A stretch of DNA of 64,000 nucleotides from Candidatus Omnitrophota bacterium. Its GTDB lineage: Bacteria > Omnitrophota > Omnitrophia > Omnitrophales > JACROU01. The stretch spans positions 98,313 to 162,312 of the forward strand of contig JAJDCD010000008.1 of the NCBI GenBank assembly GCA_029261035.1, in the 5' to 3' direction. The notes beneath the pieces are model-generated. The model saw only the letters and a list, made by a program, of their open reading frames with translations, did not search any database and was not told the origin of the DNA. Positions 3,349 to 25,300 of this stretch are shown piece after piece. Both the position numbers and the translations under genes were made by a program. Position 1 is the first letter of the stretch. The number at the start of each line of letters is the position of its first letter.

Positions 3349-4170
3349 TTAGGCAGAAAAACTTCGAACAAAACCGTCATTATTGAGCTTTAAATCTTTT
3401 CTTAATTGAGTTAATACGGCATCTGCATCGTTTTTGCCTGAAAAAGGCCCTACATTTAAAACAAAATATTTTCCACTTTGTTTTATGAAAGCATCATAGC
3501 CTTTAGAGGTCAACTTTTTAGCAGTGCGGCCGGCCGCTGTGTCTGAAACATAGGTAACAAGCTGAATTGCATACCTTTTTTGCTGTTCAATCTTAATCAG
3601 CTGATTTTGAGTCAATGTTGCATTTTCTTGCACAATCTCTTCCGTTCTAATAATAGGGCTTTCCTCTGTTGTTTCCGTATTCGCACCCGCCTCCAAAGCC
3701 TTCTCTTGTTTTTTGGTTTTAGGCTCCACTCTAACAACTTGATCCTCACGTGTCCATTCCTGCTGGATCAAAGGCTCACTACTATTCAAATTCCGAGATA
3801 GGTCTGTTTTTGCGATTTCAACAGCTTTTAGCTTACCCTTTTCAACGCCTAAAGCAAATGTAACTGAAAACAATACCATCAAAGATATAGACATAATAAC
3901 AATTTTATCAAATGTCATAGTAAATTGAATACGATCAAAAAAGGAAGAGTTTGAAGAGTCGTCTTCAGCTTGAAACGGTCTTAAATCATTTATATTGTGC
4001 TTGGAATCAAAGAATAAATCGCCTTGCATAAAAGCCCCTTTACTAAAAATTTGGTCTACATTTTGCGTTGTATAAATTATCGACCAAAAACAGAAATCTT
4101 TAAGTAAAAAGGATGCTTTTTTTTGAAATTTTTCTACTCGATGAGCCCCACTCTTTTTGGGGGCCACCAA
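3349..4170 (-). CDS. SPOR-domain membrane protein. The true start is probably downstream of the listed Met.
   Basis: TM segment IVIMSISLMVLFSVTFALGV. C-terminal SPOR-like YAIQLVTYVSDTAAGRTAKKL...YFVLNVGPFSGKNDADAVL. The 5' end overlaps lepB by 37 nt. Confidence 0.55.
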   Translation of the reverse strand: MVAPKKSGAHRVEKFQKKASFLLKDFCFWSIIYTTQNVDQIFSKGAFMQGDLFFDSKHNINDLRPFQAEDDSSNSSFFDRIQFTMTFDKIVIMSISLMVLFSVTFALGVEKGKLKAVEIAKTDLSRNLNSSEPLIQQEWTREDQVVRVEPKTKKQEKALEAGANTETTEESPIIRTEEIVQENATLTQNQLIKIEQQKRYAIQLVTYVSDTAAGRTAKKLTSKGYDAFIKQSGKYFVLNVGPFSGKNDADAVLTQLRKDLKLNNDGFVRSFSA

Positions 4171-9749: not shown

Positions 9750-10941
9750 TTTTAGAATCCCATTCTTGAATCATGTGAATATCTTTATCTCCCCGACCTG
9801 ACAAACACACAATGACAGACTCCGATTTTTTTGTCTTTGGCATCAACTTATCTAAATAAGCTAAAGCATGAGAGGTTTCCAAAGCAGGAATAATCCCCTC
9901 TAACTGCGTTAATCGATGAAAAGCTTTAACAGCTTGCGCATCAGTCACAGAAACATAATCAACCCTTTTGAGGCTCTTCAAATAAGCATGTTCTGGTCCT
10001 ACAGAAGGATAATCTAACCCAGCGGATATGGAGTGCGCCAGCTGAACCTGCCCATCCTCATCCTGCAAAAGTAAACTTTTCATGCCATGCAAAACCCCAG
10101 GCTTCCCTTTTAAAATAGCAGCGGCATGATTTGAGGTATGAACACCCTCCCCCGCCGCCTCAACTCCAATAATTCGGACCTTGTCTTTTAGAAATGGGTA
10201 AAACAAACCAATAGAATTACTCCCCCCACCAACACAAGCTAATAAATAATTTGGAGATTTTTTTAATTTTTGTTTATGCTGTAATTTCGCTTCTTTTCCA
10301 ATTACAGACTGAAAATCTCTAACAATCATCGGATAAGGATGTGGCCCTACGCAAGAACCAATCAAATAATGCGTGTCATCCACATTTGTAACCCAATCTC
10401 GAATAGCTTCATTCGTTGCATCTTTCAAAGTTTTGGAACCCGAATAAACTGGAATTACTTCAGCACCTAACAACTTCATCTTATAAACATTCAAGGCTTG
10501 CCTTTTAACATCTTCCGCACCCATATACACAACACACTCTAACCCAAAAACTTTTGCTGCTGTTGCCGACGCAACTCCATGTTGGCCAGCGCCCGTCTCA
10601 GCCACAATGCGTTTCTTCTTTAAGTACACCGCCATGAGAGCCTGTCCCAATGTATTATTAATTTTATGAGCACCTGTATGACACAAATCTTCTCTTTTTA
10701 AATATATCTTAGCTTTCCCATAATAATTCGTTAAATTCTTAGCTAAGTATAGCGCTGTCGGTCTCCCCGCATAATCTGATAAATAAAATTCCAAGTCTTT
10801 TTGAAACTTCTTATCCTTAGTTAGACGATGATAAGCTTCCGTTAATTTCTCTAAAGCTTCCACAAGCGTTTCCGGAACATAACGTCCACCGTAATCATCG
10901 AAATGACCTTGTTTATCTGGTACCGATTGTTTGTTTTTCAT
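9742..10941 (-). CDS. trpB: Tryptophan synthase beta chain
   Basis: 399 aa. PLP-lysine context [17 protein letters not shown] glycine loop. Confidence 0.95.
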
Positions 10942-10962
10942 TTACATTTTCCATTCCTAATT

Positions 10963-11718
10963 TTATATTTTAATAACTTCTAAATCATCTTTCGAAATCC
11001 ACCCATGATCTTCATTAAATAATTGAACACGGTTCCAATTTGATTCAGACTCAAGCACTCTCACCTTCAATCCTTCAGCAAGTTTAAAAACTGTTTTTTC
11101 CTCTAACGAAGGACCATATCTCGCTGGAGCATCTTTTCGTATAACAATCGCATAAGAAACATACTGATCAACCCAATATTTAACCCCAGTTAAAAAGATC
11201 ACAACACACAAAAGAGTAATCAAATACTTGGAAAACAAATTCTGCATAGGAGCTCTTTTTAAAAGAAGTCGGATTATCATCCATAAAAATGCAATCAAAA
11301 GAACTGAAAATAAAATAATTTGAATTTCAATTAACGTCCACTGCCCTGAAATAAACTCCATTAATTTTATTATGTCATTTCTTTTATCTTCCACCTTCGT
11401 ATCCACAAGACCTTTAACAAATCTTAAATTATGTTTAACATCAGGATCTCTAGGGGCAAGCATTTTAGCTTTTTCATATGAAGCAATAGACAAACCTAAT
11501 TTTTTTTCCTTATAAGCTGCGTTACCTAAATTATAAAAAGCTTCTGGAGTTGCTTTGATTAAACTAATTTTTTGATAAAGATCCAAAGCTTCATCATACA
11601 AATCGCTTTTAAATAAATCGTTAGCTTCGTCAAAATCCTTCACATAGCTCTCTTCAAGAGCAAAAGAAATACTACAAAACAAAATTCCGACTAAAAAGAA
11701 TAAGGCTATTTTTTTCAT
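10963..11718 (-). CDS. BatE-like protein: signal peptide, TPR repeats, one TM segment and a C-terminal bacterial SH3-like domain
   Basis: TPR-like AFYNLGNAAYKEKKLGLSIASYEKA. SH3b-like ARYGPS...VFKLAEGLKVRVLESESNWNRVQL...GWI. 4-nt overlap with the upstream BatD-like gene. Confidence 0.45.
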   Translation of the reverse strand: MKKIALFFLVGILFCSISFALEESYVKDFDEANDLFKSDLYDEALDLYQKISLIKATPEAFYNLGNAAYKEKKLGLSIASYEKAKMLAPRDPDVKHNLRFVKGLVDTKVEDKRNDIIKLMEFISGQWTLIEIQIILFSVLLIAFLWMIIRLLLKRAPMQNLFSKYLITLLCVVIFLTGVKYWVDQYVSYAIVIRKDAPARYGPSLEEKTVFKLAEGLKVRVLESESNWNRVQLFNEDHGWISKDDLEVIKI

Positions 11719-13748
11719 AAACTTTTATCCAAATCCATAACAACTTTTTCGATTAAATCGATCATTTGACGATTTTCCTGCTCTGTAGGTTCATACCCTG
11801 TAAACTGAGCTCTATCTCTTAAATCGTAAATCACTTCCACATCCCTTAGAACATCATCACCCATCTCAATCTCTGCCATTCTTTCCTTAACTACGCTCAT
11901 GCTCATCGAGTGAATCGATACATTCATTTTGTCCGCGAAATAACGATCTAAAATCTTCCCGATCTCAGCACAAACTTCTACAGAAGTTTTTCCAGAGGAT
12001 TTCATTATCTTTTCCATTCTTTTAACACTTTTAGTAGCCAAACGAGAAGCCGATCTTCTCTTTCGAACTACATGATCCTGCTGATTTGTCGGAGATTTCA
12101 TCTGGAAAAAAAAGAGCATCAAGAATAAAAGACCTAGCGCAGAACTAACACCCACAAAAACATTTTTCATTTTCTGCTCGAACTGATAAAACTTAAACAC
12201 TCTAAAATCTGTTTTAATCGTATAAATATCTTTTGCTTCTTTTTTTAAATCTTTCTTCAAAGATTCTTGCTGATCCGATGGAACATACCTCAATTCATCT
12301 TGAGCTTCACCAGGCAATACTTTAACTTTAAACTCCTTACTTCTTATAGCTTTATAACTATGACTATAAGGGTCAAAGTAATTAAACACCAAGGATGGGA
12401 TAACGTAATCCCCTGTATTTTCAGGAATAAAAATAATTTCAAATATTTTAGAACCTACGATAACATCTCTTCTTTTTAACAGTTGAGATGAAGACTCTCC
12501 ATCATAGATTTTAAAATTATCTATCTTTGGGATAGGAGGATGCTGTAACGTTTCGATATTACCCTCTCCTTCAATCTTCAAACTCAAAGTAATGGGTTCG
12601 TTTTGTTTTACTTGAACTCGATCGACAACAGCCTCAAACTGAAAACGACCTACAATCCCACTAAACTGAGAGGGCTTTCCTCTCTCTGGAAGCTCTCTTA
12701 CTTGAATATTAAGAATGGGAGTTGTAAGCAACTTATTCACACGTCTAGAAAACATTCCTCCACCAAAAAAGCTATCATTAAAAAAATCATCAAACATTCC
12801 ACCATTTCGCCCGCTACGTTGCTCAATCGATGCTTTAACCGTTCCTGGTTCAATCTGAAATTGTCCTGGCGACGTTGGAAACAACGCTAATTTTTTAATA
12901 TCAGCCTTAATATACCTTCTTCCCCCAACAGTAACTGTTGTTTTTTCAATATCACGTCCTATAGGTATTTCTTCCACCCAAAAACCTGTCGCTTGAGGCT
13001 CTTCCTCAAAGCCTTCATACCGCGTATCTGCACGTGTATATAAAGAATACGTTAACGAAATTTGCTGACCAGGATAAACAGCCGTCTTATCCACCCAAGC
13101 TTTTAAAAAAATAGGTTCATTCCCTGATGCTTGCTCATTAACACTAGGAGAGCTTCCTCCTGAGTAAGGGTAAGGTGTCGTTGTCTGTGGTAAAGAAGTC
13201 CTTGTCGGACTCGAATAATTAGGATCTGGAGAATTAACCGGCAATGAAGTACTTTGACCTAATGCAGGACTATTTGTCTGTTGCATTCCAGGAGTTCCCA
13301 AAACTTCAATCTGAACAACTTCTGTTCGATAAATATCACTATTTACGTTAACTTCTATAGGTCCAACATTAAAAATACCCGCTCTTTTAGGAATTAGAAC
13401 ATAACGAAACTCTGTTATAGAATCCTGCTTTCCATTCACAAAGGAAAACCGAGTCGAACGTCCAGAGTAATAAGATTCGAAACTTTCACTGATAGGAATA
13501 CGGGGTCTTTGAATATTTACTTTAGCTCCAGAAATACGTATATTTAAGCTCAATTGATCATCTACTTCTAAAGTTTTTTTGTCAAAAATAGTCGAGACCT
13601 GTATATTCTCTTGCGCAACCCCATACGAACATACGAGTAACGTCAAAAAAAGGACTACAATAGATTTTGAGACTCTAATCATATTCATAAGTGTAAAAAC
13701 CCTAAATTGAGAGCTACAGGCATAAATCAAACTTTCATTGTAAAACAA
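11715..13748 (-). CDS. BatD-like (Bacteroides aerotolerance family) protein. Large periplasmic protein with a single C-proximal TM segment.
   Basis: 677 aa. Signal peptide, ~520 aa beta-rich periplasmic portion, TM (VFVGVSSALGLLFLMLFFFQM), cytoplasmic tail. This matches BatD topology. Family assignment is by pattern only. Confidence 0.45.
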   Translation of the reverse strand: MFYNESLIYACSSQFRVFTLMNMIRVSKSIVVLFLTLLVCSYGVAQENIQVSTIFDKKTLEVDDQLSLNIRISGAKVNIQRPRIPISESFESYYSGRSTRFSFVNGKQDSITEFRYVLIPKRAGIFNVGPIEVNVNSDIYRTEVVQIEVLGTPGMQQTNSPALGQSTSLPVNSPDPNYSSPTRTSLPQTTTPYPYSGGSSPSVNEQASGNEPIFLKAWVDKTAVYPGQQISLTYSLYTRADTRYEGFEEEPQATGFWVEEIPIGRDIEKTTVTVGGRRYIKADIKKLALFPTSPGQFQIEPGTVKASIEQRSGRNGGMFDDFFNDSFFGGGMFSRRVNKLLTTPILNIQVRELPERGKPSQFSGIVGRFQFEAVVDRVQVKQNEPITLSLKIEGEGNIETLQHPPIPKIDNFKIYDGESSSQLLKRRDVIVGSKIFEIIFIPENTGDYVIPSLVFNYFDPYSHSYKAIRSKEFKVKVLPGEAQDELRYVPSDQQESLKKDLKKEAKDIYTIKTDFRVFKFYQFEQKMKNVFVGVSSALGLLFLMLFFFQMKSPTNQQDHVVRKRRSASRLATKSVKRMEKIMKSSGKTSVEVCAEIGKILDRYFADKMNVSIHSMSMSVVKERMAEIEMGDDVLRDVEVIYDLRDRAQFTGYEPTEQENRQMIDLIEKVVMDLDKSL

Positions 13749-13846
13749 CCTATTCCCTAAGTCAATCTAAGGAAAATGCTTGATAACGACCTATAATACA
13801 TAGGAGTGGAATAGAGTCTGCTTTAGGAAAGTTTATTTACGAGCGG

Positions 13847-14068
13847 CTATTCTTCAACCCAATCATTTGTTACGTCAATTTCTAGCTTTTTAAAACATTG
13901 ATTACAACAACCAATAACAAAAACCTTATTGTCTTTCGAGATTAAGGTTCCATCTAAAATCTTACACTCTTTAGAACAATGCAAACACTCAAAAAATGTT
14001 TTTTCTAAAAATGCTTTACTAGGATCCTCTCCATAACTCGGATAAGGTTTAAAATCCCCCATCGACAT
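13847..14068 (-). CDS. Small zinc-ribbon-like protein (73 aa, CxxC ... CCxxC)
   Basis: Cys pairs CLHC and CCNQC. Lies 4 nt downstream of the ParB-like gene. Confidence 0.4.
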   Translation of the reverse strand: MSMGDFKPYPSYGEDPSKAFLEKTFFECLHCSKECKILDGTLISKDNKVFVIGCCNQCFKKLEIDVTNDWVEE

Positions 14069-14072
14069 CTCC

Positions 14073-15029
14073 TTATAATAAGTCTTCTAATATAGATTTT
14101 TTTTCTTCCAGTTCTTCTAATACCAAAGATAAATCTTTTTTATTTTTAATCCGCACTCTAAGTTCAACACCCTCTTCTTCCATAGATTCAGATTTTACTA
14201 ACTGGATTTTTTGTTTAAATTTTATTTTTGATATTTTTTTTCTAAATTCTTTTTTGGCTTCAAAACTCTTAGGATAACGGCATTGATTCAATACAGCAAT
14301 CAACTTTTCTGATCGCAACCTCTCCTTTCCTTCCCCAGCTTCTTCAATCAGAGAAAACAACTCCGGCTTCTTTAAAATATCACCTAGTGCATGATCGTGA
14401 ATATGTTTCAAATCTTTCAGTAGCTGCGCTAAGAGTTGTATTTCTGAAGAAGTAAATACAAACAGACTTAAAACAGAGTTCCATAGTAACCCTTGTTCCT
14501 CAGGAGAAAATTCAGCCAAATCCCAAATTCCTCTAAACGGTAGCTGACCATGATAAACGCTTTCGAGTATTTCTTTATTTAGGAGTTGTACTTTTTGGTA
14601 ACAATCTATTTGCTTCAAAGAGACATCAATTCCATGGCGATTAAACCATTTAGTAATATCTCGATTCTCTTTTAAAGCATCGCTCCCAAGAAGTTTTGAA
14701 AAAAGAACAGAAAAATCTAATTCGCTATAAGATTGCCTATAATTCATGTCTAAAGCAAACGAAAATAACTGCTCCTCAGATAAACCCTCTTTAATAACAG
14801 AAATAGGAATATCTTCCCCCCAAGAAATACTTAACAATGCATAAAAACGCTTAAATCCTGAGATGAGCTCATACCTCCCAGAGTCTGTTTTTCTACAAAG
14901 CAAAGGGGCCATCAACCCTTGGTTTTTAATAGACTCCGTCAGCAAATCATCTTTCAATGAATAGCGTAAGCAATACTTCCCATCCAAAGGATCTATGTCT
15001 TGAATTTTTACTTTTTTAAAACTGAGCAT
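14073..15029 (-). CDS. ParB/Srx-fold N-terminal domain protein with a coiled-coil Lys/Glu-rich C-terminus
   Basis: KVKIQDIDP...SIKNQGLMAPLLCRKTDSGRYELISGFKRFYAL matches the ParB N-domain pattern (GxxR box). Confidence 0.45.
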   Translation of the reverse strand: MLSFKKVKIQDIDPLDGKYCLRYSLKDDLLTESIKNQGLMAPLLCRKTDSGRYELISGFKRFYALLSISWGEDIPISVIKEGLSEEQLFSFALDMNYRQSYSELDFSVLFSKLLGSDALKENRDITKWFNRHGIDVSLKQIDCYQKVQLLNKEILESVYHGQLPFRGIWDLAEFSPEEQGLLWNSVLSLFVFTSSEIQLLAQLLKDLKHIHDHALGDILKKPELFSLIEEAGEGKERLRSEKLIAVLNQCRYPKSFEAKKEFRKKISKIKFKQKIQLVKSESMEEEGVELRVRIKNKKDLSLVLEELEEKKSILEDLL

Positions 15030-15031
15030 AT

Positions 15032-16462
15032 TTATTTACCCTCCAACCATTTAAGCCAACGCCTTTCAACTTCTTTAGCAGACAAGCTGAATACTTTTAA
15101 GAATGCAGAATCAACGTTTTCTTCTTTCCCTAATTCTTTAAGCAATTCTCTTACTTTATAAAAACCAAACCTCTCTATCAAATAATCAACAAAAACAAAA
15201 GACTGTTGATAAAACAGCGTTGTCGTTTCGGTGTTCTTGAAAATCTTTTCTCCTAAAGAAAGTCCCCTAAGATTCAAAAGCTTATTTCTACGGTAAGTTG
15301 TCCAAAAAAATCTTAATTGAATTGGAATAACTTTATTTTCATAGTATTGCGCAACTCCTTCGTTAAGCCATAAAGGAACTTTATCACCCGCATAATTATA
15401 TATAAATGCATGCGTCAATTCATGCCATATCAATCGCTTCATCTCACGCTCAGAACCTCTTTGCTTATTCAAAAATGGCATTCTTATTTTCCCATCAAAA
15501 AGAGCTCCCGTTAAATGTGAAGATCGAATCTTATTTTCAAAATCCTTTTTCTCATACATTAAGACGACTATTTTACCTTTAAGAGGAGTAGAAAAATCTT
15601 GGTAAATTTCCTTATAAGCCTCTCTCAACAACAACTTTAAGTCATAAGAAGTGTATTGTTGATTCGACGATGCGTATCTTATCTTAAAATGCTCCTCCTC
15701 TACAGAGAGCAAACCTTCCTCTAAAGGAAGCTCTTTCTTTAACTTACTCCTCTTTTTATTTATTCGATCCAAACTGTCTCTGGATACTGCTTTTTCCCAA
15801 TAAAACTCAGCCTCTTTAAGCTCTTGGAGTTGATAATGTATGTTCCCCAGCAATTCATTCGCCAATTTATTATTTGGCTCATACTCTAATATCTTCTTTG
15901 TTGGAGTCTTGGCTAATTCATAATTTTTTGCTTCATAAAAACTACCTGCTTGTTCAAATAAAGCATAAACTACATTTCTACGAAAAATAAAGTTATCCGT
16001 AGGCTGAAATTTTCGAGAGACTCTCTCTTTCCCATCGGGAAGAAGATGAGAGATAACATTATTTTTCATTTCCACTGGCTGTTTTTCCTCAAGAAGCATT
16101 GAGATTTCTTTTGCTTTTTCTTGATTCACACCTAAACCTTTGGCAATATCCAAATATTCTTTAGCTTCCTGAAAGTGATTTTCTTGAACAAGAAATTTAC
16201 TGTATTTCAAATAGACTAAAGCAAGTTTCTTTTCCGTTTCAACATCATAATGCTTATATATCTTCTCTTCCAATTCTTCAATCTCATGTACAAGTTCCTC
16301 TTCTTCCAAACTTAATTCAATATTTTTACTGACTGTCAAAACTTGAGTATCTGGTTTCATCTCCTCAGAAAATAACTCTGGAGAAGAATGGTAAAACATA
16401 AGGATTGTGAGGGGAAGAATGAGTAAAAGTTTTATATTTTCTATATGAAGCATATATATCAT
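15032..16462 (-). CDS. Secreted TPR-repeat protein with a C-terminal peptidase_MA-like HExxH domain
   Basis: WHELTHAFIYNYAGDKVPLWLNEGVAQYYE matches the HExxH...E motif of the MA-clan Peptidase_MA_2 family. N-terminal signal/TM. Confidence 0.5.
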   Translation of the reverse strand: MIYMLHIENIKLLLILPLTILMFYHSSPELFSEEMKPDTQVLTVSKNIELSLEEEELVHEIEELEEKIYKHYDVETEKKLALVYLKYSKFLVQENHFQEAKEYLDIAKGLGVNQEKAKEISMLLEEKQPVEMKNNVISHLLPDGKERVSRKFQPTDNFIFRRNVVYALFEQAGSFYEAKNYELAKTPTKKILEYEPNNKLANELLGNIHYQLQELKEAEFYWEKAVSRDSLDRINKKRSKLKKELPLEEGLLSVEEEHFKIRYASSNQQYTSYDLKLLLREAYKEIYQDFSTPLKGKIVVLMYEKKDFENKIRSSHLTGALFDGKIRMPFLNKQRGSEREMKRLIWHELTHAFIYNYAGDKVPLWLNEGVAQYYENKVIPIQLRFFWTTYRRNKLLNLRGLSLGEKIFKNTETTTLFYQQSFVFVDYLIERFGFYKVRELLKELGKEENVDSAFLKVFSLSAKEVERRWLKWLEGK

Positions 16463-17562
16463 TTTAAAGTTTGAACTCTTTTAATTCGGTGGCTTATCGA
16501 TGGATGATCATACAACAAAAACTCAATAAGAGGATGAGGGTTTGGGTTTGCCAAATTCAATTCAGCCAACTTCTCCATTAAACTTTGAAAAACATCTTTC
16601 CTTGGTATCGTTTTTATAGCAAAAGCATCCGCTTCATATTCATGCTTCCTAGAAAAAGCATTCTCAAGCGGTGATGAAATAATCCCAAATAAAGAAATAA
16701 GCAAAAATAAAAAAGGGAGAAAAACAACATCCCCAATACTTTCACCCCCTCTGAAAGACACCCAAATATTCGATAGATGAAAAAGAAGAAAAAATACGGC
16801 CAAAGTAGTTACAGTTCCCCATCCAACCCTTTTCCATAAATGATTTAAACGACAATGCCCCATTTCATGAGCTACGACCATCTCAACCTCATCTTCAGTA
16901 AAATTCTCTAAAAGGTTGTCCGATAAAATAACTCTACGCGTTTTACCCATACCGCAAAAAGCAGCATTTGCTTTTTTTGTCGTCTTACTCATATTAAACA
17001 TATAAACATTATCAAGCGCCAAACCGCCACTCTTAACGAGATTTAAAAGCCTCAGTCTTAAGACTTCATTATCTAAAGGTTTAAATTTATAAAACAATGG
17101 AAAAATAAGTATCGGAGCTAAACGTCCCAATAAAATAGAAAAAGCTAACCAGCCTACCCACGCAATCCACCACCAATCTTTTTCAAAAGTATGAACTACA
17201 AGATAAAATATTTCCACTAAGAAAAGAGATAAAAGAAAGGAAAGAACTGATTTTTTTACTCCTTCAAAGAACCACCCCCCAAAAGATTGTTCGGATAAAT
17301 TATATTTCTTTTCTAATAAATAGCTGAAAAAGATGGAAAACGGGAAAGCAAAAATATAAATATAAATCGAAAACAAAAAGAAAAAAAGGGCAATTCCCAG
17401 ATAGTAAGAATTGGTTACTGAAACAACAAATTGTTTAAAAAAGGATGATAGTGGAGAAAATACGGCGACTGCAAGCAAAGATAAGATCAAAAACAAATGA
17501 AATGCTGAGGCGTAAAGTTTAATTTTTTGGTACTCAACAGCTTTATTACGACCTTGTTCCAT
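16459..17562 (-). CDS. M48 family (HtpX/Ste24-like) integral membrane zinc metalloprotease
   Basis: About 5 N-terminal TM segments. VAHEMGHCRLNH (HExxH) and the downstream HEYEADAFA third-ligand motif are characteristic of M48. Confidence 0.7.
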   Translation of the reverse strand: MEQGRNKAVEYQKIKLYASAFHLFLILSLLAVAVFSPLSSFFKQFVVSVTNSYYLGIALFFFLFSIYIYIFAFPFSIFFSYLLEKKYNLSEQSFGGWFFEGVKKSVLSFLLSLFLVEIFYLVVHTFEKDWWWIAWVGWLAFSILLGRLAPILIFPLFYKFKPLDNEVLRLRLLNLVKSGGLALDNVYMFNMSKTTKKANAAFCGMGKTRRVILSDNLLENFTEDEVEMVVAHEMGHCRLNHLWKRVGWGTVTTLAVFFLLFHLSNIWVSFRGGESIGDVVFLPFLFLLISLFGIISSPLENAFSRKHEYEADAFAIKTIPRKDVFQSLMEKLAELNLANPNPHPLIEFLLYDHPSISHRIKRVQTLK

Positions 17563-17585
17563 AAAAACCCTACCCGCTTATTTCT

Positions 17586-17693
17586 TTAAGAATCTCTCTT
17601 TTTTCTTAAAAAAGTGATTACGATACAAAACAAAAAACCACCCAAAATAAGTACCAACGAAAAAATCATAAAAATCAGAGCCTGCAATTCCAT
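17586..17693 (-). CDS. 35-aa single-TM micro-protein (MELQALIFMIFSLVLILGGFLFCIVITFLRKKRDS), translationally coupled to the NSS transporter
   Basis: GGAGGA Shine-Dalgarno 5 nt upstream of the ATG, overlapping the transporter stop codon. Hydrophobic core plus a basic C-tail. Below the ORF-track size cut-off. Confidence 0.3.
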   Translation of the reverse strand: MELQALIFMIFSLVLILGGFLFCIVITFLRKKRDS

Positions 17694-17705
17694 CTAAATC
17701 CTCCG

Positions 17706-19151
17706 TCAATCCTCTTCATACTTAATATGTTTTATCCACTGCGGAGTTAAAACAAGAAGAGCAATGATTAAAATACCCCATTGCAAAAAACAAGTCCCAA
17801 CATTATATGAGTGTAATGGAAACCACCATTGCTCCGGATTGTCTTTTATCGACTGTATCAACCACCAACTGATCACTATAATAAATTCTAACGGGATGAC
17901 CCATTTAACCATAAAGCCAAAACCAAACTTAAAAAATTGGGGCATACCCGAAAAATTCTCATTCAAATATTTCTCAATACCATAGCGATGAATTAGAACA
18001 GCAAAAAAGAAACCACTCAGCAAAAGACCTAAACCCCAAACCCAATCTTGATTGTTTAGAATATCAATACGCAAAGCAGATGGAGTTCCAATAAGAATAC
18101 CAAAAAAGAAAATAAAAAATACCGATTTTCTACGGGATACTCCAAAATTTCTTAAAAAATGTGATCCCAACTCAATCATCGAAACTAAAGAAGTAAAAGC
18201 AGCACAAGATAAAGCTAAAAAGAAAAATACAGCAAATAACTGCCCATATTCTAATTGTTTAAAAATAAGTGGTAATGAAATAAAAGTAAGGCCGGTATTC
18301 CCTGAAGCAGTAATGGACATCGCCTCCCCCACAGGAAGAACAGCAAACAAAGTTGGAATGATCGCTAAGGATGCAATCATGGCAGCAGAACTATCCCCTA
18401 ACCCTGTTGTAAAGGAATGCAAAACAGAATTCTCCTTACTATGCGAATAGGCAGCGTAAGACAAAATAATGCCCCACCCTGCCCCTGTACTCCAAGCCGA
18501 TTGACTGATCGCTTCAATCCAAGTAGTCGCTGACAATAACTTGGACCAATCTGTTGAAAATATAAAATTAAGGCCTGCCGCAGCATTAGGTAAACTCATT
18601 GCAAACAATGCAAGAGCTATCAAAACAAGAAAAAATAAAGGCATTAAAATAATGCAAAGCCTCTCTATTCCTTTAATAACACCCAAAAGAACAATCAAAC
18701 TAGCACAAAAAAAACTAATACAATGAAAATAAAGGGGTTCCATTGAGCCAACAGTAAATTGAGTCCAGAGCACTTGGGAATCCACTTTAAAAAGAGAACC
18801 CGTTAGCGCTAAGGAAAAGTATTTTAAGCACCACCCCACAATAACGCTGTAATAAAACATAATCCCCATAGTACAAAATGCAATGAAGGCTCCCATCCAC
18901 ACCCATTTCTTGCCAAGCATTTCAGAAAAAACAACAAAAACACCTTGCCCATAACGCTTACCACATGAAAATTCAATTAAGATGATTGGAATTGCCCACA
19001 AAAAAAGAGCGATGATAAAAGCAATGAGAAAGGCCCCTCCACCATTAAGAGCGACAACTCGTGGGAAACGCCAAATATTCCCAGTCCCAATAGCGAGGCC
19101 TAATAAAGCTAAAATAAGTCCCCAAGTAGATTGAAATCGTTCTTTACCCAT
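17706..19151 (-). CDS. Neurotransmitter:sodium symporter (NSS/SNF) family transporter
   Basis: N-terminal W..GLILALLGLAIGTGNIWRFP is the NSS signature. ~11-12 TM segments. Confidence 0.85.
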   Translation of the reverse strand: MGKERFQSTWGLILALLGLAIGTGNIWRFPRVVALNGGGAFLIAFIIALFLWAIPIILIEFSCGKRYGQGVFVVFSEMLGKKWVWMGAFIAFCTMGIMFYYSVIVGWCLKYFSLALTGSLFKVDSQVLWTQFTVGSMEPLYFHCISFFCASLIVLLGVIKGIERLCIILMPLFFLVLIALALFAMSLPNAAAGLNFIFSTDWSKLLSATTWIEAISQSAWSTGAGWGIILSYAAYSHSKENSVLHSFTTGLGDSSAAMIASLAIIPTLFAVLPVGEAMSITASGNTGLTFISLPLIFKQLEYGQLFAVFFFLALSCAAFTSLVSMIELGSHFLRNFGVSRRKSVFFIFFFGILIGTPSALRIDILNNQDWVWGLGLLLSGFFFAVLIHRYGIEKYLNENFSGMPQFFKFGFGFMVKWVIPLEFIIVISWWLIQSIKDNPEQWWFPLHSYNVGTCFLQWGILIIALLVLTPQWIKHIKYEED

Positions 19152-19226
19152 AAAGGTTATTATATCGTTCTTCGAAGCTTTTAGCCATTAGCTTTTAGCT
19201 GAAGAGTTAAAGGAAGGGTCTGGTTT

Positions 19227-19270
19227 AAAAAAAAGAGGCCGGAAGTAATAAAAAACCTATTTCCGACCTC
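19227..19270 (-). terminator. Rho-independent terminator downstream of the giant ORF
   Basis: On the minus strand, GAGGUCGGAA-16 nt loop-UUCCGGCCUC (10 bp with one G:U) followed by a U-run. Confidence 0.5.
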
Positions 19271-19318
19271 TTTCTTTCTGTAATCCGTTCTCTCTAATCT
19301 GCCATCGCTCCCAACAAT

Positions 19319-22300
19319 TTATGCAGCGATTTGAATCTGATATTGAGCTTTAATATCGTTAAACAATCCTTCTATCAATTCCGTCAATGAAAGCAATGTA
19401 AACAAACCTCTACGAGCATCATATTGAATCATCAAACTCATATCATCATGAATCAAACTTGCCGTCTCCCCACGAACAGCACCAATTCTACGCGACAGCT
19501 CCATAGATAGTTCTGCGGGTACATCTGATTCCACAGAAACATGCAAAAATTCATTCTCAGTCGACTTGGTCAACTTTCTAAACAATCCTTTATCTGGACT
19601 TACAATAACAGAAACAACTTGCTCTCCCAAAGAAGCTTCACGACTAATTAACGTGTTCACTTCTTGATACAGTGAATTTGAAGTTGCATAAGGGTAAATA
19701 GCTACCGTTTCTGGAAGCCCTTCAGGAAAATATGAAGCTATTTTTTCAACAGCAGCCTCATAAGATTCTGATTTTACAAAAATGCCTAAAAAGGTTTCTT
19801 CAGTAATCTTATTCAGAAACTCAACATTTTCTGATAAATCCTCTTCAGTTAACAGTAATCGTACTTGCGGATCAGAATCCGTCAAAGGAACAAAGGCTGA
19901 TAATACTTCTACTCGTGATTCCAATTCTAATTTAAATGATTTAAATGCTTCATCACGAATCTCAGGCTTTAATGTTTGAAACAATCCTTGAATAAGAGCT
20001 GTGTTATTTCTTACAACATCAGAAACAAAAGATTCATCAATCTCTAAAGGCAACTCAAAAGTAGGAAGCACTTCTTCTGCGAGTACACTTCCCAAAGATC
20101 TTGCCCTTGCACGAGCTGTTACCAAACTTTGAACTGTCACTCTTGAAGTTTGAATATTAAAACCCCCTTGAGCCACAGTCTTGAGAAGAATGGTAGCCAC
20201 TGGTTTTAATCTACGAATATTTTCTCTTCCATATCGGTTCAGAAAAGCTTCTTGTTCTTCTGTCATCTCTTCATTATCCAAATTAAAATCACTAATACTC
20301 TGAAGAAGAGCTCTGTCTGGAGCAAAGCTCATAAAAGCACTTACAGCAGAACGGTATTGAATGTAAGCTAAATAATAATTAGCTCTGGCTAAAGAAATTT
20401 CTCTTTGTTTTTGAAAGTCTTGCAACAAAACATTCGTGCTACTCGCCGAACCTGACCTGAGAGATGCTAACTCCGCCTCTTTTCTGTCTAGCTCTGCTTT
20501 TCTAATCAACAAGGCTTCTTGTTTTTGCCCCAAGTTAATCCAAGCTGTTTGGATTTCTTCGACTACTTTGCCAACCATATTCTCTATCACTCTATTCTTT
20601 CCTTGAAGTTTCGATCTCGCACTAGATCCATCATCCAAAAAGTTAAATAAGTTAGGAACCAAAACAGCACCTCCAAACTCATCAGGATCCGTATCACTCG
20701 TAGTTCTAAAGTCATCTAAACGAGATTGAAATAGTTCAGGATCTCCACGATGACCTTCCATTCTAATATCCGGCAATGTATTTCCAGCTTCCTCCAAAAC
20801 TAAACGGATACCTGTTGCTTCAAAATCATCTACTTTAGAACTAACACGCATATCTAACAATGCTAATTGTCTAAATAGTTGATTTAGCTTTAAACGTCTT
20901 TCATTTCCGTCTGCTGGCAAACCTTGAATAGAAACTGTGTTCACATTAGCTGTGTCCAAGGTAAAATTAATTCTCATTGAAGGGTCAGCTGACACATTTA
21001 AAGCTCTTCTTATTGCAACTTCACTCAAACGAATACGAGCTCCCAATGTTCCGTTTTCACTCGCACCCTCTCTACCTACCAACAACTCTAATGTAGCAAT
21101 CTGAGACAAGATAGCACTTCGTCTCGTTCTCATAGAAGCTTTGTCTCTATCTAGTGCACTTGGTAAAACTCTATCAAGATAAGCAAGCTCACTTCGAAGC
21201 GTTCCCAACTGCCCTCGAACTAAGGTCTGTTGTTGACGCATATACCACAACTTTAATACCTCAGAATTTACCCTGTCTACAGAACTCACCAATTGCTGTT
21301 GATATGTATTAGCCCCTGCTCTCTGAACGATAAAAGCGAGATCACTCCAATCAGCACCCACACCTGTAAACAAACTCTTCAATGACATCGTAAAACTCAT
21401 AAGTGTATCAATTCCGCTTGCTACAGGAGATTCACCAATCGTCAAATTAATCGTTCCACCTCCCAAATAAGCAGGTAATTGAATAATAAATCCACCTGCA
21501 ACCTCATAAGTTTCACCATCACGAGAAACAGTTCCTCCAAAGAATGTGGAAATATTAAAATCATTAATGCTCTTAGAAGAAGTCTCTGAATCCTGACGAG
21601 CCACATCCGCATTAATCACATTGTAATTTCTGCGCAATAATAATAAAGGCAAATCATGTTCTGTTACTGCCGCTCCACTGATTTGCATAGGAACACCAAC
21701 AACACGAATTTTCCCATCATCCCCCATTGTTAAAGTAACATTCTGTATTGATGATGCCGTTCCATAACGATCAGATATCTGGGATCTTCCTCTTTCGTTT
21801 TCTACAATATCTCTTACCTTACATGAAGTAAGACAAACCACTGTAAGCAAACTTAAACTTAAAAGACCAAAACCAAACCTTCTTTTACCTAGCGATGAAG
21901 CTTTTGAGACAAGAACAACTGCTTCAACATCCCCACCTGTCGACAAAGACTGTATCCCTGGCAAACTCAGAACTACCAAAACCCTGGACTGCCCTCTAAC
22001 ATTTCCATCGGATAATTTATGAGAAATTTCTCCTCGAACATAAACATCCCCGATACGGACATACAAAGAATCACCCACAGAGAGATTTGAAGCTTGTTCT
22101 GAGGCAAGAGAAACACTAAAAGAAGAACCTCCAGAAAGTTGGTAAACAACTTGATCCTGAGTAACAGACACTTGTCCTGATGGTGCTCCAACAGAAATAA
22201 CACCCCCTTGAGAAGACCGAACATTTAACCCTGCAATCACAGATCTTCTAGTGGCAATCATTTGCTCCACAGCTCTGATACCGCCTTCTACAGTATCCGA

Positions 22301-25300
22301 ATCGATTTCCGCATCCCTTGCAAGTCGTAACAAACTACGGATTTGCACCTTAAGCCTTCTTGTAGTCTGATTTCTAGAACCGATCTCTCCATCAATTCTT
22401 CTTTGTTCCGCTACAACTTGAGTTTGTGTTCGAGGACTTGCCGGAGCCCCAGTAATATCTGCCGTTCTCACCAATTGATACAAACGCTCTAATAAAGATA
22501 AATCGGGTGTCTCTCCTCTGTTTCCAGCTTGGTAAACAATATCTACTTGAGAAATAAGTTGTTCCAATGCATTTTTAACAATACCGTGATCGTGTAAATT
22601 TCCTGATAAAGCTCTTAGTGGAGTTAATAGAGATTGGAAATGAGTTAACACATCAGTCAACCCAAATGTTTTAGCTTCTGTAATTTTTCCAAGAAGCGTT
22701 CTGAATGATTGACTCGAATTAACAAGTCGTCTATCTTCAGTCTCTTGAGTTGTAGAAACAACAACTTGCTGGCGAGAGCGATCACTTCGTAGACCTTCAA
22801 TTTCTCGAGCTAATTCCCTTATCTCTCCCAGTTTTTCTTGAGCACTACGAATGTCTTCTCTTAACTGTCTTATATTTGCATTAATTTGACCTTCTGACCT
22901 AAACTGTCCATCTATGAGATCTCCAACTTTACGACCAATCACAGCTCCACTGCGAATTCTTTCTCCCACAGTTCTTGCCTGTTCAGTAAACACAATAGGG
23001 CCAGAAAACTCAGCCGCTTCCTGAATGGATGAATTTGAAGATAAAGCACCTTTAAAATAATCAAACTCCCCTTCAGGTTTAAGTTGCACTCTAGAATCTC
23101 CCTGGACCGAAACAATTTTTCCAGAAAAAGATTCTTCGGTCACTGCAGTACTAGGAATTCTCGATATGCTTACAAGAGTCGTTCCAGGTTTAGATCCAAC
23201 GCCATCGATTCGAATAGAAACACCCTGAACCACTGTTCCATCTTGCTTTTGAACGACTGCCAATTTATTAACCAACAATAAAGCTAAGGCTGCAGGAATC
23301 TCAAGAGAAATTTGTTTTTGAGATAAAAATCGATTCTGCCCAATAACTTGTTGAGATTGAACCATTGCATCTACAGAAGCTGTAAAACGCGTCTCACCTC
23401 CACGCTCAAAGGAAACGGTTCCTAAAGAGACTAAAGTAGATAAACGAGCCCCTATGACTGCTAACCGAGTTTCAATTTCAACCTCCCTCTCAGACTTAAC
23501 ACTAACCGTTATATCTGGATTCGCTTCACCCATCGCTTCACTAACCCGAGTCCACCGAACTCTTTCAGGACCCAATTCTCCTTCTAAACGCAACTTTTCA
23601 CTCTCTAAACGAATCTGTTCTGGACTTTTAATAACATAAACTCCACCCACTCTGGAGAGAACACCAGAAATCGGTGCTAATATAGGTTGAGAGTAAGTTG
23701 TTACTGCTCTACTAAATTCATATGGAAAACTAAAATCGCTAGCGGATAAGTCTGCTGGAGGTGCCCCGGCACCTGCAGGAACAACTCTAGCCACAACTCC
23801 TTCTCGAGCTCTTTCTTCAACATGAGGTAGTAAAATTCTCTGCAACAAAGAATAATTCAAAGGCACGGGTCGAGGCAACTCAACATTCCCTTCAACACGA
23901 AGAGATCGGGCTGGAATAGTAAATTTCAAAGTCTCTTTATTAGGTTTCAAAGAAACAAAGCCAAAAACAGCTGCAAGAATCACGAGTATTCCCGACACAA
24001 CCCCTTTAACTAAAACTGTACCAGGTAAATACTGTTCTATTTTCCATTTTAAATCTGCCGTCCAATCAGAAACTTCAGAATCCAAAGCACTAACTTTGTG
24101 CCCTCCATTATATGAAGTAACATTAAATAGCTCTTTATACTCTTCTTTCCCATCAATAAATTCTTGAAACTTAGAAGGCCCTACCCTTAAAACCATACCT
24201 GATTCAATAGCTTTATTAATGGTAACTGTCCTAACACTGCTAATTTCTTCCAGAACTGGTTGAACAACATTACCTTCTTGAAACTGTGTTAGTCGATGAA
24301 AATTAAGCTCCCCTGCTTGAGATACTTTAACAACAAGCTCTTCACTTATTTGAATAAAAGCTGCTCGAACTGTAGCTTGTTTCTGAAATTCTTTAAGTTT
24401 TAAAACACCATTAAAAGGTGATTGAGGAGAATACTGTACTCCAGCATTCGTTTGAAACCAATAGCGCACAGGAGATCTACCATACACCGTTAAACTGTCA
24501 TCTTCCTCCCACACAACTCTTAAATGCAAAGACGATGGGAGAATATCTGTTGAAATATCTCTTTCTTTTAGATCAATTACATTTTTATCTTCAGGTCTTT
24601 TACCTTGATAGAAAATAGTTTCTCCAGAAAAATAAGATTGAGAGCCTTCAAGATCTATAGACTCACCAGAACTTGACTGAACCTCTAAAAGGCTTCCCTT
24701 AGGTACATTAATAGAGTCTCCATCGTTAAATGACTGACTATCAATTTTAATAGAGCGACTCATAGGAAATCGAGCCAACACTCCGAGCAACACCCCTAAA
24801 ACACCCAACAAGCCTGCCAGTATCATCCAGATTGGGTTTTGAGGCACAGCCACTTCTTTTGTCACCGTATACTCGGGATCATTCCCAGACAGAGATACAC
24901 TTTGACTTACAGGTGCAGTCGTTTCCTCGCCCAACAAATTACCTTGATTATGTCTAGCAAAATAAATCGCAATTGCTGTCCTTAGAGTAGCATTTTCTCT
25001 ATACCTACTATGCAACCCTCTTAACTGCTCAACCTTAAACGTGCTGTCTACTTCTGCATTAAGCAACTGCCTTAAGTAGTCCGCCTTAACTCTTGAATTT
25101 GTAGCTGAGTTTAATAAACCTAATATTCGAGAAAATTCTTCTTGTGTTTTAATTTCTGTAATCGTTTCAACTCCTTGAGCTTGAACTTCAGAAACTCCTA
25201 CCGTTAAAATAACTCCAAGCCCTAAAAATCCAGTTAATAAAAATGGAAAAGCTTTAGAGAAGCTCTTCACACCTCTAGCATCTCCCAAACTAGCAGCTTG

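Follow-up and report, generated by a model that had tools for sequence, protein, structure and literature searches.

Six closely packed genes on one strand of an uncultured bacterial genome raise the question of whether they form a single system. They lie between positions 10,963 and 17,562 of a stretch of Candidatus Omnitrophota DNA 64,000 nucleotides (nt) long (contig JAJDCD010000008.1, assembly GCA_029261035.1), which is called the window below. In the order of transcription, they encode an M48 metalloprotease, a tetratricopeptide-repeat (TPR) protein with a Peptidase_MA_2 domain, a ParB-like protein, a short cysteine-rich Zn-ribbon protein, a BatD-family protein and a BatE-like protein (Table 1). 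A first-pass annotation, made from the letters of the DNA and a list of its open reading frames (ORFs), had described them as one translationally coupled transcript. Its six minus-strand ORFs lie where it placed them, and all its domain calls hold against the Pfam profiles on which the calls given here are based, the 73-aa ORF being without a family match; window-wide scans took every ORF of at least 120 aa. The cluster looks like two adjacent transcription units, however, and not like one six-gene system. In the first unit, a Ste24-type M48 protease and a periplasm-facing TPR/MA_2 gluzincin would be co-transcribed with an orphan, cytoplasmic member of the ParB family; an accessory Zn-ribbon gene comes after them. 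In the second, BatD and the BatE-like gene would be expressed from their own sigma-70 promoter, and transcription would run on into trpBA and housekeeping genes. Taken as a whole, with the roles that are proposed for the proteins, this two-unit account is the one preferred here, and it falls a little short of being probable.

The break between the two units falls upstream of BatD. All junctions had been described as 4-nt overlaps or 2–4-nt gaps, which is correct for four of the five. The M48 and MA_2 genes overlap by 4 nt, the MA_2 and ParB-like genes are 2 nt apart, the ParB-like and Zn-ribbon genes are 4 nt apart (10 nt if the latter starts at the ATG at 14062), and BatD overlaps the BatE-like gene by 4 nt. 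Between the Zn-ribbon gene and BatD, 158 nt are non-coding (13689..13846), or 98 nt with a TTG start at 13748. This TTG, which had been taken as the start of BatD, was rejected: in homologues the alignment begins at the ATG at 13688, and the −10 box of a conserved promoter overlaps the TTG. The promoter lies on the minus strand and consists of a −35 box TTGACT (13765..13760), a 17-nt spacer and a −10 box TACAAT (13742..13737). In the promoter scan it ranks among the top two matches on the minus strand (10/12). Since the scan overall yielded no more sites than are found in shuffled sequence, the weight given to this promoter rests on its conservation across lineages. In six lineages of the window clade, a gap of 87–158 nt precedes BatD whatever the upstream gene, and in the alignment of these six gaps GACTT and TAnAAT are invariant and 17 nt apart. 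Because the promoter in the 158-nt gap is conserved in this way, BatD and the BatE-like gene appear to head a transcription unit of their own, and a single coupled operon of six genes is not supported. To judge from the spacing, this second unit would continue into trpBA and beyond: trpB follows the BatE-like gene after 21 nt, and the series trpB-trpA-ruvX-M16-rpe-lepA-lepB has gaps of at most 38 nt. Terminator prediction gave nothing on the minus strand after the Zn-ribbon gene and ahead of BatD, so that read-through into BatD is possible. Independent promoters inside the bat cluster of Leptospira are described in PMC3557215.

Close spacing on one strand is of little help in this genome. Some 95% of the window is coding, and its 52 ORFs of at least 120 aa lie without exception on the minus strand. 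Its 51 junctions, all on that strand, have a median gap of 17 nt, with 19 gaps of at most 5 nt and 34 of at most 40 nt. A binomial estimate gives about 0.07 for at least four tight junctions out of five at this background rate. With such an extreme gene-strand bias over 64 kb, same strand and tight spacing are uninformative, and since tight gaps run on both sides of the cluster as well as window-wide, spacing marks no six-gene unit. On the upstream side, an apparent gap of 143 nt 5′ of the M48 gene contains a micro-ORF of 35 aa, which leaves 23 nt before the M48 start. Of note, the GC skew is negative across the whole window (−0.15 to −0.31).

The gene order recurs in relatives, a point that the first-pass annotation had left to be checked, and comparison of their loci (designated by L numbers) delimits the first unit. 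In the seven lineages of the window clade, where the ParB-like proteins are 35–43% identical, the order is a giant protein, (an SNF-family transporter), (MeaB, methylmalonyl-CoA mutase and B12-binding genes), M48, MA_2, ParB-like, a variable slot, BatD, BatE-like, trpB, trpA, ruvX, M16, rpe and lepA. A second deep lineage (L023, L024 and L018; GCA_018823795.1, GCA_043813055.1) has identities of 41% for M48, 33% for MA_2, 25% for ParB-like, 34% for BatD and 26% for BatE-like. There the order is DUF4416, M48, MA_2, ParB-like, BatD, BatE-like and a response regulator, with no trpBA, and the gap from the ParB-like gene to BatD is 12 nt in L023 and L018. In the third (L025–L028; M48 43%, MA_2 37%, ParB-like 28%), the L025 locus (GCA_029548955.1) reads Exo_endo_phos, M48, MA_2, ParB-like, a gap of 385 nt and leuS, with no BatD or BatE within 10 kb. 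The M48/MA_2/ParB-like trio is the only adjacency common to all three deep lineages, its junctions overlapping or nearly so. Its upstream neighbours vary (SNF transporter with the micro-ORF, B12-binding, alpha/beta-hydrolase, DUF4416, Exo_endo_phos), as do its downstream neighbours (Zn-ribbon, HEPN, LemA, BatD, leuS). BatD and BatE are thus a frequent but separable neighbour of the trio. The operon of BatD/BatE-like genes with two metalloproteases, as first proposed, survives as contiguity in the window; their own promoter and their absence from the L025 locus speak against the operon itself.

The first protein of the trio is predicted to be a Ste24-type (M48A) integral-membrane zinc metalloprotease. 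It matches Pfam Peptidase_M48 (6e-29) and the five-helix M48_N domain (5e-19), and among PDB entries the yeast Ste24p chain 4il3 (3e-30) and human ZMPSTE24 (6e-27). Seven hydrophobic segments, read as seven transmembrane (TM) helices, agree with the membrane location proposed in the first-pass annotation. The zinc site HEMGH is found at residue 232, and the HExxH motif is kept in all seven of the seven lineages compared. The second protein matches Pfam Peptidase_MA_2 (4e-17) and TPR profiles. Its HELTH motif is followed 17 residues on by a Glu (in NEG), and HExxH followed by [NHQ]EG is kept in 6/6 lineages where this protein was read. With HExxH and a downstream Glu ligand, its sequence corresponds to that of a gluzincin. 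Because it has a single N-terminal hydrophobic segment (TM or signal), most of the protein is predicted to be periplasmic, in line with the TPR-linked, secreted protease that had been announced.

The third protein, of 318 aa, has the ParB/Srx N-domain fold, as had also been proposed. Pfam ParB_N matches it at 4e-9, and its AlphaFold2 model reaches a predicted local distance difference test (pLDDT) of 87. In Foldseek, the PDB chains closest to this model are those of M. xanthus ParB, Noc, Spo0J and KorB, with E-values of about 1e-8 (entries 7bnk, 6sdk and 1vz0 among them) and some 200 aligned columns that cover the N-domain and the helical middle domain; PadC is another of the structural matches. 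The family profile matches PDB ParB and Noc chains at 1e-23. The layout consists of the ParB/Srx N-domain, a helical middle domain putatively of helix-turn-helix type, a family-specific C-terminal alpha/beta region and a long end helix. The middle domain aligns to the DNA-binding domains of ParB and Noc, and Pfam HTH_ParB gives no match. No hydrophobic or TM segment is found, which agrees with the predicted cytoplasmic location, and the C-terminal helix is acidic. In the model, a beta-strand begins as early as residue 2, and there is neither an N-terminal extension nor a ParA-activating peptide. No ParA-like gene is present in the window or in the flanks of the relatives. The identity of this gene as a canonical chromosomal ParB was rejected on its motifs, on its partner (no parA) and on its architecture.

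The first-pass annotation had suggested a ParB-fold CTPase or NTPase switch, with the CTP-binding residues to be checked. The G and R of the GxxR box are kept, as G58-F59-K60-R61 (GFKR, against GERR in ParB; GHKR in L025). F59 aligns with M. xanthus ParB E93, and the glutamine of the QPR motif (M. xanthus Q52) is not conserved in the family. These positions were fixed by comparing chains 7o0n (E93A mutant) and 7bnk for E93, and by a numbering offset of 33 residues for Q52; according to the entry titles, the alanine mutants of Q52 and E93 were crystallised with CTPγS, or with CDP and thiophosphate. In the ENxxR box, Glu is replaced by Met and N96 is kept. We infer that the protein would bind nucleotide but be a poor hydrolase. 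A CTPase switch is doubtful because the positions aligned to M. xanthus Q52 and E93, which are linked to hydrolysis, are not conserved and GERR is replaced by GFKR. No reliable prediction of the nucleotide specificity of the ParB fold can be made from sequence or from AlphaFold3, according to a recent survey (PMC12704722). In the C-terminal part, R251 is nearly invariant, and P253 and E284 are invariant family-wide. E284 belongs to an acidic SMEEEG loop (region of residues 283–285), the only segment of the model with a pLDDT below 50, and this combination of conservation and predicted disorder suggests a binding motif for some partner.

The ParB-like family is large. An exhaustive profile search returned 496 cluster representatives at E≤1e-30, nearly all of 305–345 aa and matching over their full length, so that the family comprises at least 496 clusters at 50% identity. 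The named relatives of the window's own ParB-like protein are proteins from metagenome-assembled genomes of Candidatus Omnitrophica/Omnitrophota. In 52 diverse members of the family, G58, R61, P253 and E284 never vary. Scans of GTDB and of metagenomes with the family alignment gave two and four loci, respectively, all of the close clade, and the protein-database profile search was dominated by canonical ParBs; the distant contexts were reached through a second, targeted alignment. A neighbour-joining tree, star-like and poorly resolved, places the family apart from canonical ParBs, with the three trio-context lineages in one half and five members of other genomic contexts in the other. In L008, L017 and L019–L022, the sister-branch ParB-like gene (at about 10001 in L008, L019 and L021) lies directly upstream of an SPL-type radical-SAM gene (PF20903), which is itself followed by a DUF1848 gene in L019–L022. 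In L015 and L017, the ParB-like gene lies directly downstream of a GT2 gene preceded by DsbD_TM; in L008, PNP_UDP_1 stands between GT2 and the ParB-like gene. The ParB-like/SPL pair may be an undescribed pairing tied to DNA repair or modification.

How could the trio work? Both proteases would process or quality-control membrane or periplasmic proteins, as Ste24, HtpX and BepA do, and BatD with the BatE-like protein would provide a periplasmic scaffold. The ParB-like protein would be a dimeric, NTP-binding, hydrolysis-poor DNA-binding protein working with the proteases. Such a role has parallels within the ParB family, which includes the transcription regulators KorB and VirB and the non-hydrolysing CTP binder PadC. 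That the ParB-like protein does work with the proteases is about an even chance, the link being plausible. A more specific proposal is that, in Omnitrophota, a ParB-fold, NTP-binding subfamily has come to serve a Ste24-type protease and a TPR-gluzincin as their cytoplasmic partner (substrate, regulator or DNA-bound output). This would make a new ParB-switch module for trans-envelope signalling or quality control, with BatD/BatE as a frequent add-on, and it is doubtful. The mechanism preferred here is also the least secure step, and an unlikely one: following the logic of BlaR1/BlaI, the membrane protease would act on the ParB-like protein as its target or output, bound to DNA in the cytoplasm.

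The strongest rival, which has a considerable chance of being right while staying improbable, is that these genes are neighbours and nothing else. The ParB-like protein would then be an orphan DNA-binding protein, perhaps for DNA repair or nucleoid organisation, unrelated to the proteases or to BatD/BatE, and the adjacency would reflect a compact region that is rarely rearranged. Several observations go this way and weigh against the functional partnership. Tight spacing and a single strand hold window-wide. Unrelated genes also stay adjacent at comparable divergence, such as the housekeeping order ruvX-M16-rpe-lepA across the seven lineages of the window clade, and UvrD-MazG even in the deep L023. 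Gene order being broadly sticky in this lineage, conserved adjacency is weaker evidence of shared function here, and the context of the trio is sampled in three lineages. The five sampled members of the sister half (20–24% identity) adjoin the SPL-type radical-SAM gene, with or without DUF1848, or GT2/DsbD_TM genes, and none of them has a protease or BatD nearby. The invariant residues are identical in both contexts, which suggests an activity independent of the proteases and other neighbours. The survey in PMC12704722 finds that ParB homologues often occur as orphans, away from parAB operons, and are widespread as such; it makes no mention of peptidases, BatD, radical SAM or Omnitrophota. Nor did the DNA provide a binding site: the inverted repeats of two intergenic regions are only A/T-rich low-complexity pairs, and the perfect palindromes with arms of at least 7 nt found across the cluster in eight loci have no arm in common, and thus give no operator or parS. 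As for the BlaR1 analogy, the M56 (BlaR1) profile reaches 18 bits on the M48 protein, around HExxH, where its cut-off is 31; M48 homologues are likewise listed with a weak M56 match at this motif. Mere neighbourhood accounts less well, however, for the fact that the trio outlasts other local synteny. The surroundings of the L025 trio are otherwise all different, except for the giant gene further upstream, the downstream housekeeping block is replaced in L023 with the trio intact, and at least five changes of flanking genes on either side have left it whole.

The two-unit account also has to assign a place to the Zn-ribbon gene. Its protein has a CxxC..C..CxxC cysteine pattern, no hydrophobic segment and no Pfam, NCBIfam or PADLOC match. 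The ORF is a real gene, since it has a ribosome-binding site and a homologue in L013 with the same cysteine pattern (39% identity, E 3e-17). It probably starts at the second ATG (14062), because an AAGGAG Shine-Dalgarno motif lies 6 nt upstream and the L013 homologue begins at an equivalent MGEF. The gene is found in two of nine lineages, the window and L013, and is not at the equivalent position in L001, L003, L005, L010 and L023. It is thus accessory and not a fixed partner of the ParB-like gene; the pair that the first-pass annotation had singled out dissolves, the slot being elsewhere empty or filled with HEPN and/or LemA-TPM-TPM genes. The HEPN proteins of L013 (10942..11388) and L005 (10999..11433) are orthologous (Pfam HEPN, 3e-25) and have an N-terminal hydrophobic segment that looks like a signal peptide; an exported HEPN protein would be unusual. 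The LemA-TPM-TPM membrane module of L003 (11004..12852) and L005 (11484..13277) is a second envelope-type module in this slot.

The second unit starts with a protein whose BatD-family identity is confirmed by Pfam (8.8e-39, 132 bits against a cut-off of 24, in three stretches). Its predicted layout comprises a signal peptide, three BatD/DUF11-like domains, a TM helix (510–528) and, on the cytoplasmic side, a basic tail of about 129 aa, and the structure search gave no solved relative. In L024 (9566..11492, GCA_043813055.1), BatD is split into ORFs of 342 and 287 aa where the nearly identical L023 has one gene of 641 aa, a frameshift, pseudogene or assembly error. The next protein combines a predicted signal peptide and two predicted TM helices with TPR (Pfam TPR_1/TPR_2, about 3e-7) and, at its C-terminus, a bacterial SH3 domain (SH3_4/SH3_3, about 2e-5). 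Its designation as BatE-like is putative, drawn from its architecture (TPR and SH3 beside BatD). Neither protein of the pair matches a curated NCBIfam BatD or BatE model, and the BatC match of the BatE-like protein is of 20 bits for a cut-off of 175.

An integrated system had been proposed on this basis, namely a six-gene, co-translated envelope-stress or aerotolerance variant of Bat, in which metalloproteases replace BatA, BatB and MoxR and a ParB-fold CTPase acts with the Zn-ribbon protein as a switch. It is true that, as first annotated, BatA/BatB-type vWA partners are missing: no vWA, MoxR/AAA_3 or DUF58 domain is found in the scanned ORFs of the window, and no vWA, MoxR or DUF58 gene in the 10-kb flanks of the relatives. 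All five core families are moreover contiguous and tight in L023 and L018, and contiguous in the window clade apart from the slot insertions. This proposal has nevertheless become very improbable. The conserved promoter and gap precede BatD in six lineages, BatD/BatE are missing from the L025 locus, the Zn-ribbon gene is confined to two lineages, BatD/BatE are joined to trpBA as tightly as to anything, and the residues aligned to the hydrolysis-linked positions of ParB are not conserved. The aerotolerance role of Bat is itself uncertain even in model organisms: the Leptospira bat mutants have been studied, and since no specific function of the Bat homologues had been shown according to the abstract of that work (PMC3557215), "aerotolerance" is a name and not an established function.

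Least probable of all, and close to negligible, is a Noc-like tether in which the nucleotide-bound ParB-like protein would attach the nucleoid to the membrane at a protease or BatD complex, for although Noc ranks near the top in the structural and sequence comparisons and the neighbouring genes all encode membrane proteins, the ParB-like protein has no N-terminal extension or amphipathic helix (beta-strand from residue 2) and no hydrophobic segment, and its C-terminal helix is acidic.

Table 1. Features of the cluster in the window, and content of the variable slot upstream of BatD in the window clade
Feature	Coordinates	Strand	Length or content
M48 protease gene	17562..16459	−	367 aa
TPR + Peptidase_MA_2 gene	16462..15032	−	476 aa
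ParB-like gene	15029..14073	−	318 aa
Cys-rich Zn-ribbon gene	14068..13847	−	73 aa, or 71 aa from second ATG at 14062
Sigma-70-type promoter before BatD	13765..13737	−	TTGACT-17-TACAAT
BatD-family gene	13688..11715	−	657 aa
BatE-like gene	11718..10963	−	251 aa
Slot ParB-like/BatD, L001 and L010			empty
Slot ParB-like/BatD, window			Zn-ribbon gene
Slot ParB-like/BatD, L013			HEPN + Zn-ribbon
Slot ParB-like/BatD, L003			LemA-TPM-TPM
Slot ParB-like/BatD, L005			HEPN + LemA-TPM-TPM

Some features of the surroundings deserve mention. The micro-ORF upstream of the M48 gene (17586..17693, minus strand, 35 aa, MELQALIFMIFSLVLILGGFLFCIVITFLRKKRDS) has a single TM segment and a GGAGGA ribosome-binding site, and lies directly 3′ of the gene of the SNF-family transporter. 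Its L001 counterpart (40 aa, 4045..4167), which also comes after the SNF gene, has a GGFxxC core in common with it, and the micro-ORF may encode a small transporter subunit. MeaB, methylmalonyl-CoA-mutase and B12-binding genes stand directly upstream of M48 in L001 (4148..7438), L003 (3955..6863) and L005 (4571..7568). In L013, ORFs of matching size stand at this place; the window lacks the three genes and has the SNF gene right next to the cluster. The giant ORF (19319..27076, minus strand, 2585 aa) has no Pfam match at E≤0.01, and syntenic homologues with 22–30% identity lie upstream of the cluster in L001, L003, L005, L013 and L025. A permissive Rfam scan of 10500..19400 gave no RNA element, and PADLOC gave no match for any of the six proteins, nor for the HEPN protein of the L013 slot.

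What would follow from the two-unit account depends on the trio. If it is a working unit, the ParB-CTPase fold would be extended to envelope proteolysis or signalling, and bacterial Ste24 homologues and Peptidase_MA_2 proteins, for which to our knowledge no role has been defined, would gain a first functional clue. If the adjacency is merely inherited gene order, this is an ordinary stretch of a compact genome. In addition, the locus shows that, at least locally, BatD and BatE can occur with no MoxR or vWA gene close by. The analysis also defines the ParB-like proteins of about 320 aa as a large family that is found in two distinct genomic contexts.

Comparison with known systems helps to situate both units. 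In the Bat clusters of Bacteroides and Leptospira (MoxR-DUF58-BatA-BatB-BatC-BatD-BatE), as in the window, BatD adjoins a TPR and SH3 membrane protein of BatE architecture, here with a 4-nt overlap. The window differs by having no vWA BatA/BatB, MoxR or DUF58 in 64 kb, and its BatD/BatE pair has its own promoter, is co-linear with trpBA and matches no curated NCBIfam BatD or BatE model. The M48 protein, with its seven TM helices, its HExxH motif and its Ste24p match, resembles Ste24 and ZMPSTE24, although no CAAX-type substrate is evident; the NCBIfam HtpX and LoiP models lie far below their cut-offs. BepA combines M48 with TPR, and the pairing of an M48 activity with TPR in the window recalls it; here, however, the repeats sit on a separate second metalloprotease (MA_2) and are not fused to M48.

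The ParB-like protein can be compared with ParB/Spo0J, Noc, KorB, VirB and PadC. Alignment to ParB, Noc and KorB takes in its N-domain and helical middle domain, some 180–230 positions in all, the G and R of GxxR are invariant, the N of ENxxR is kept, and the C-terminal helix could dimerise. Its gene, as with Noc, KorB, VirB and PadC, has no parA beside it. Unlike canonical ParB, it does not conserve the Gln of QPR, the Glu of GERR or that of ENxxR, it comes without a ParA-activating peptide, Pfam HTH_ParB match or parS-like palindrome, and its C-terminal domain is distinct, with the family-invariant R251, P253 and E284. BlaR1/BlaI and MecR1/MecI are similar in logic only, a polytopic HExxH membrane protease of the same clan being encoded with a cytoplasmic protein of DNA-binding type. 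In the window, the M56 score is below its cut-off, the protease has no penicillin-binding or other sensor domain, the partner has a ParB fold and not the winged helix of BlaI/MecI, a periplasmic protease is added and no operator was found. Literature searches linking the M48, MA_2, ParB-like and Bat families returned nothing relevant. Set beside all these systems, the cluster brings known families together in a new and undescribed way, and it is conserved among lineages of an uncultured phylum.

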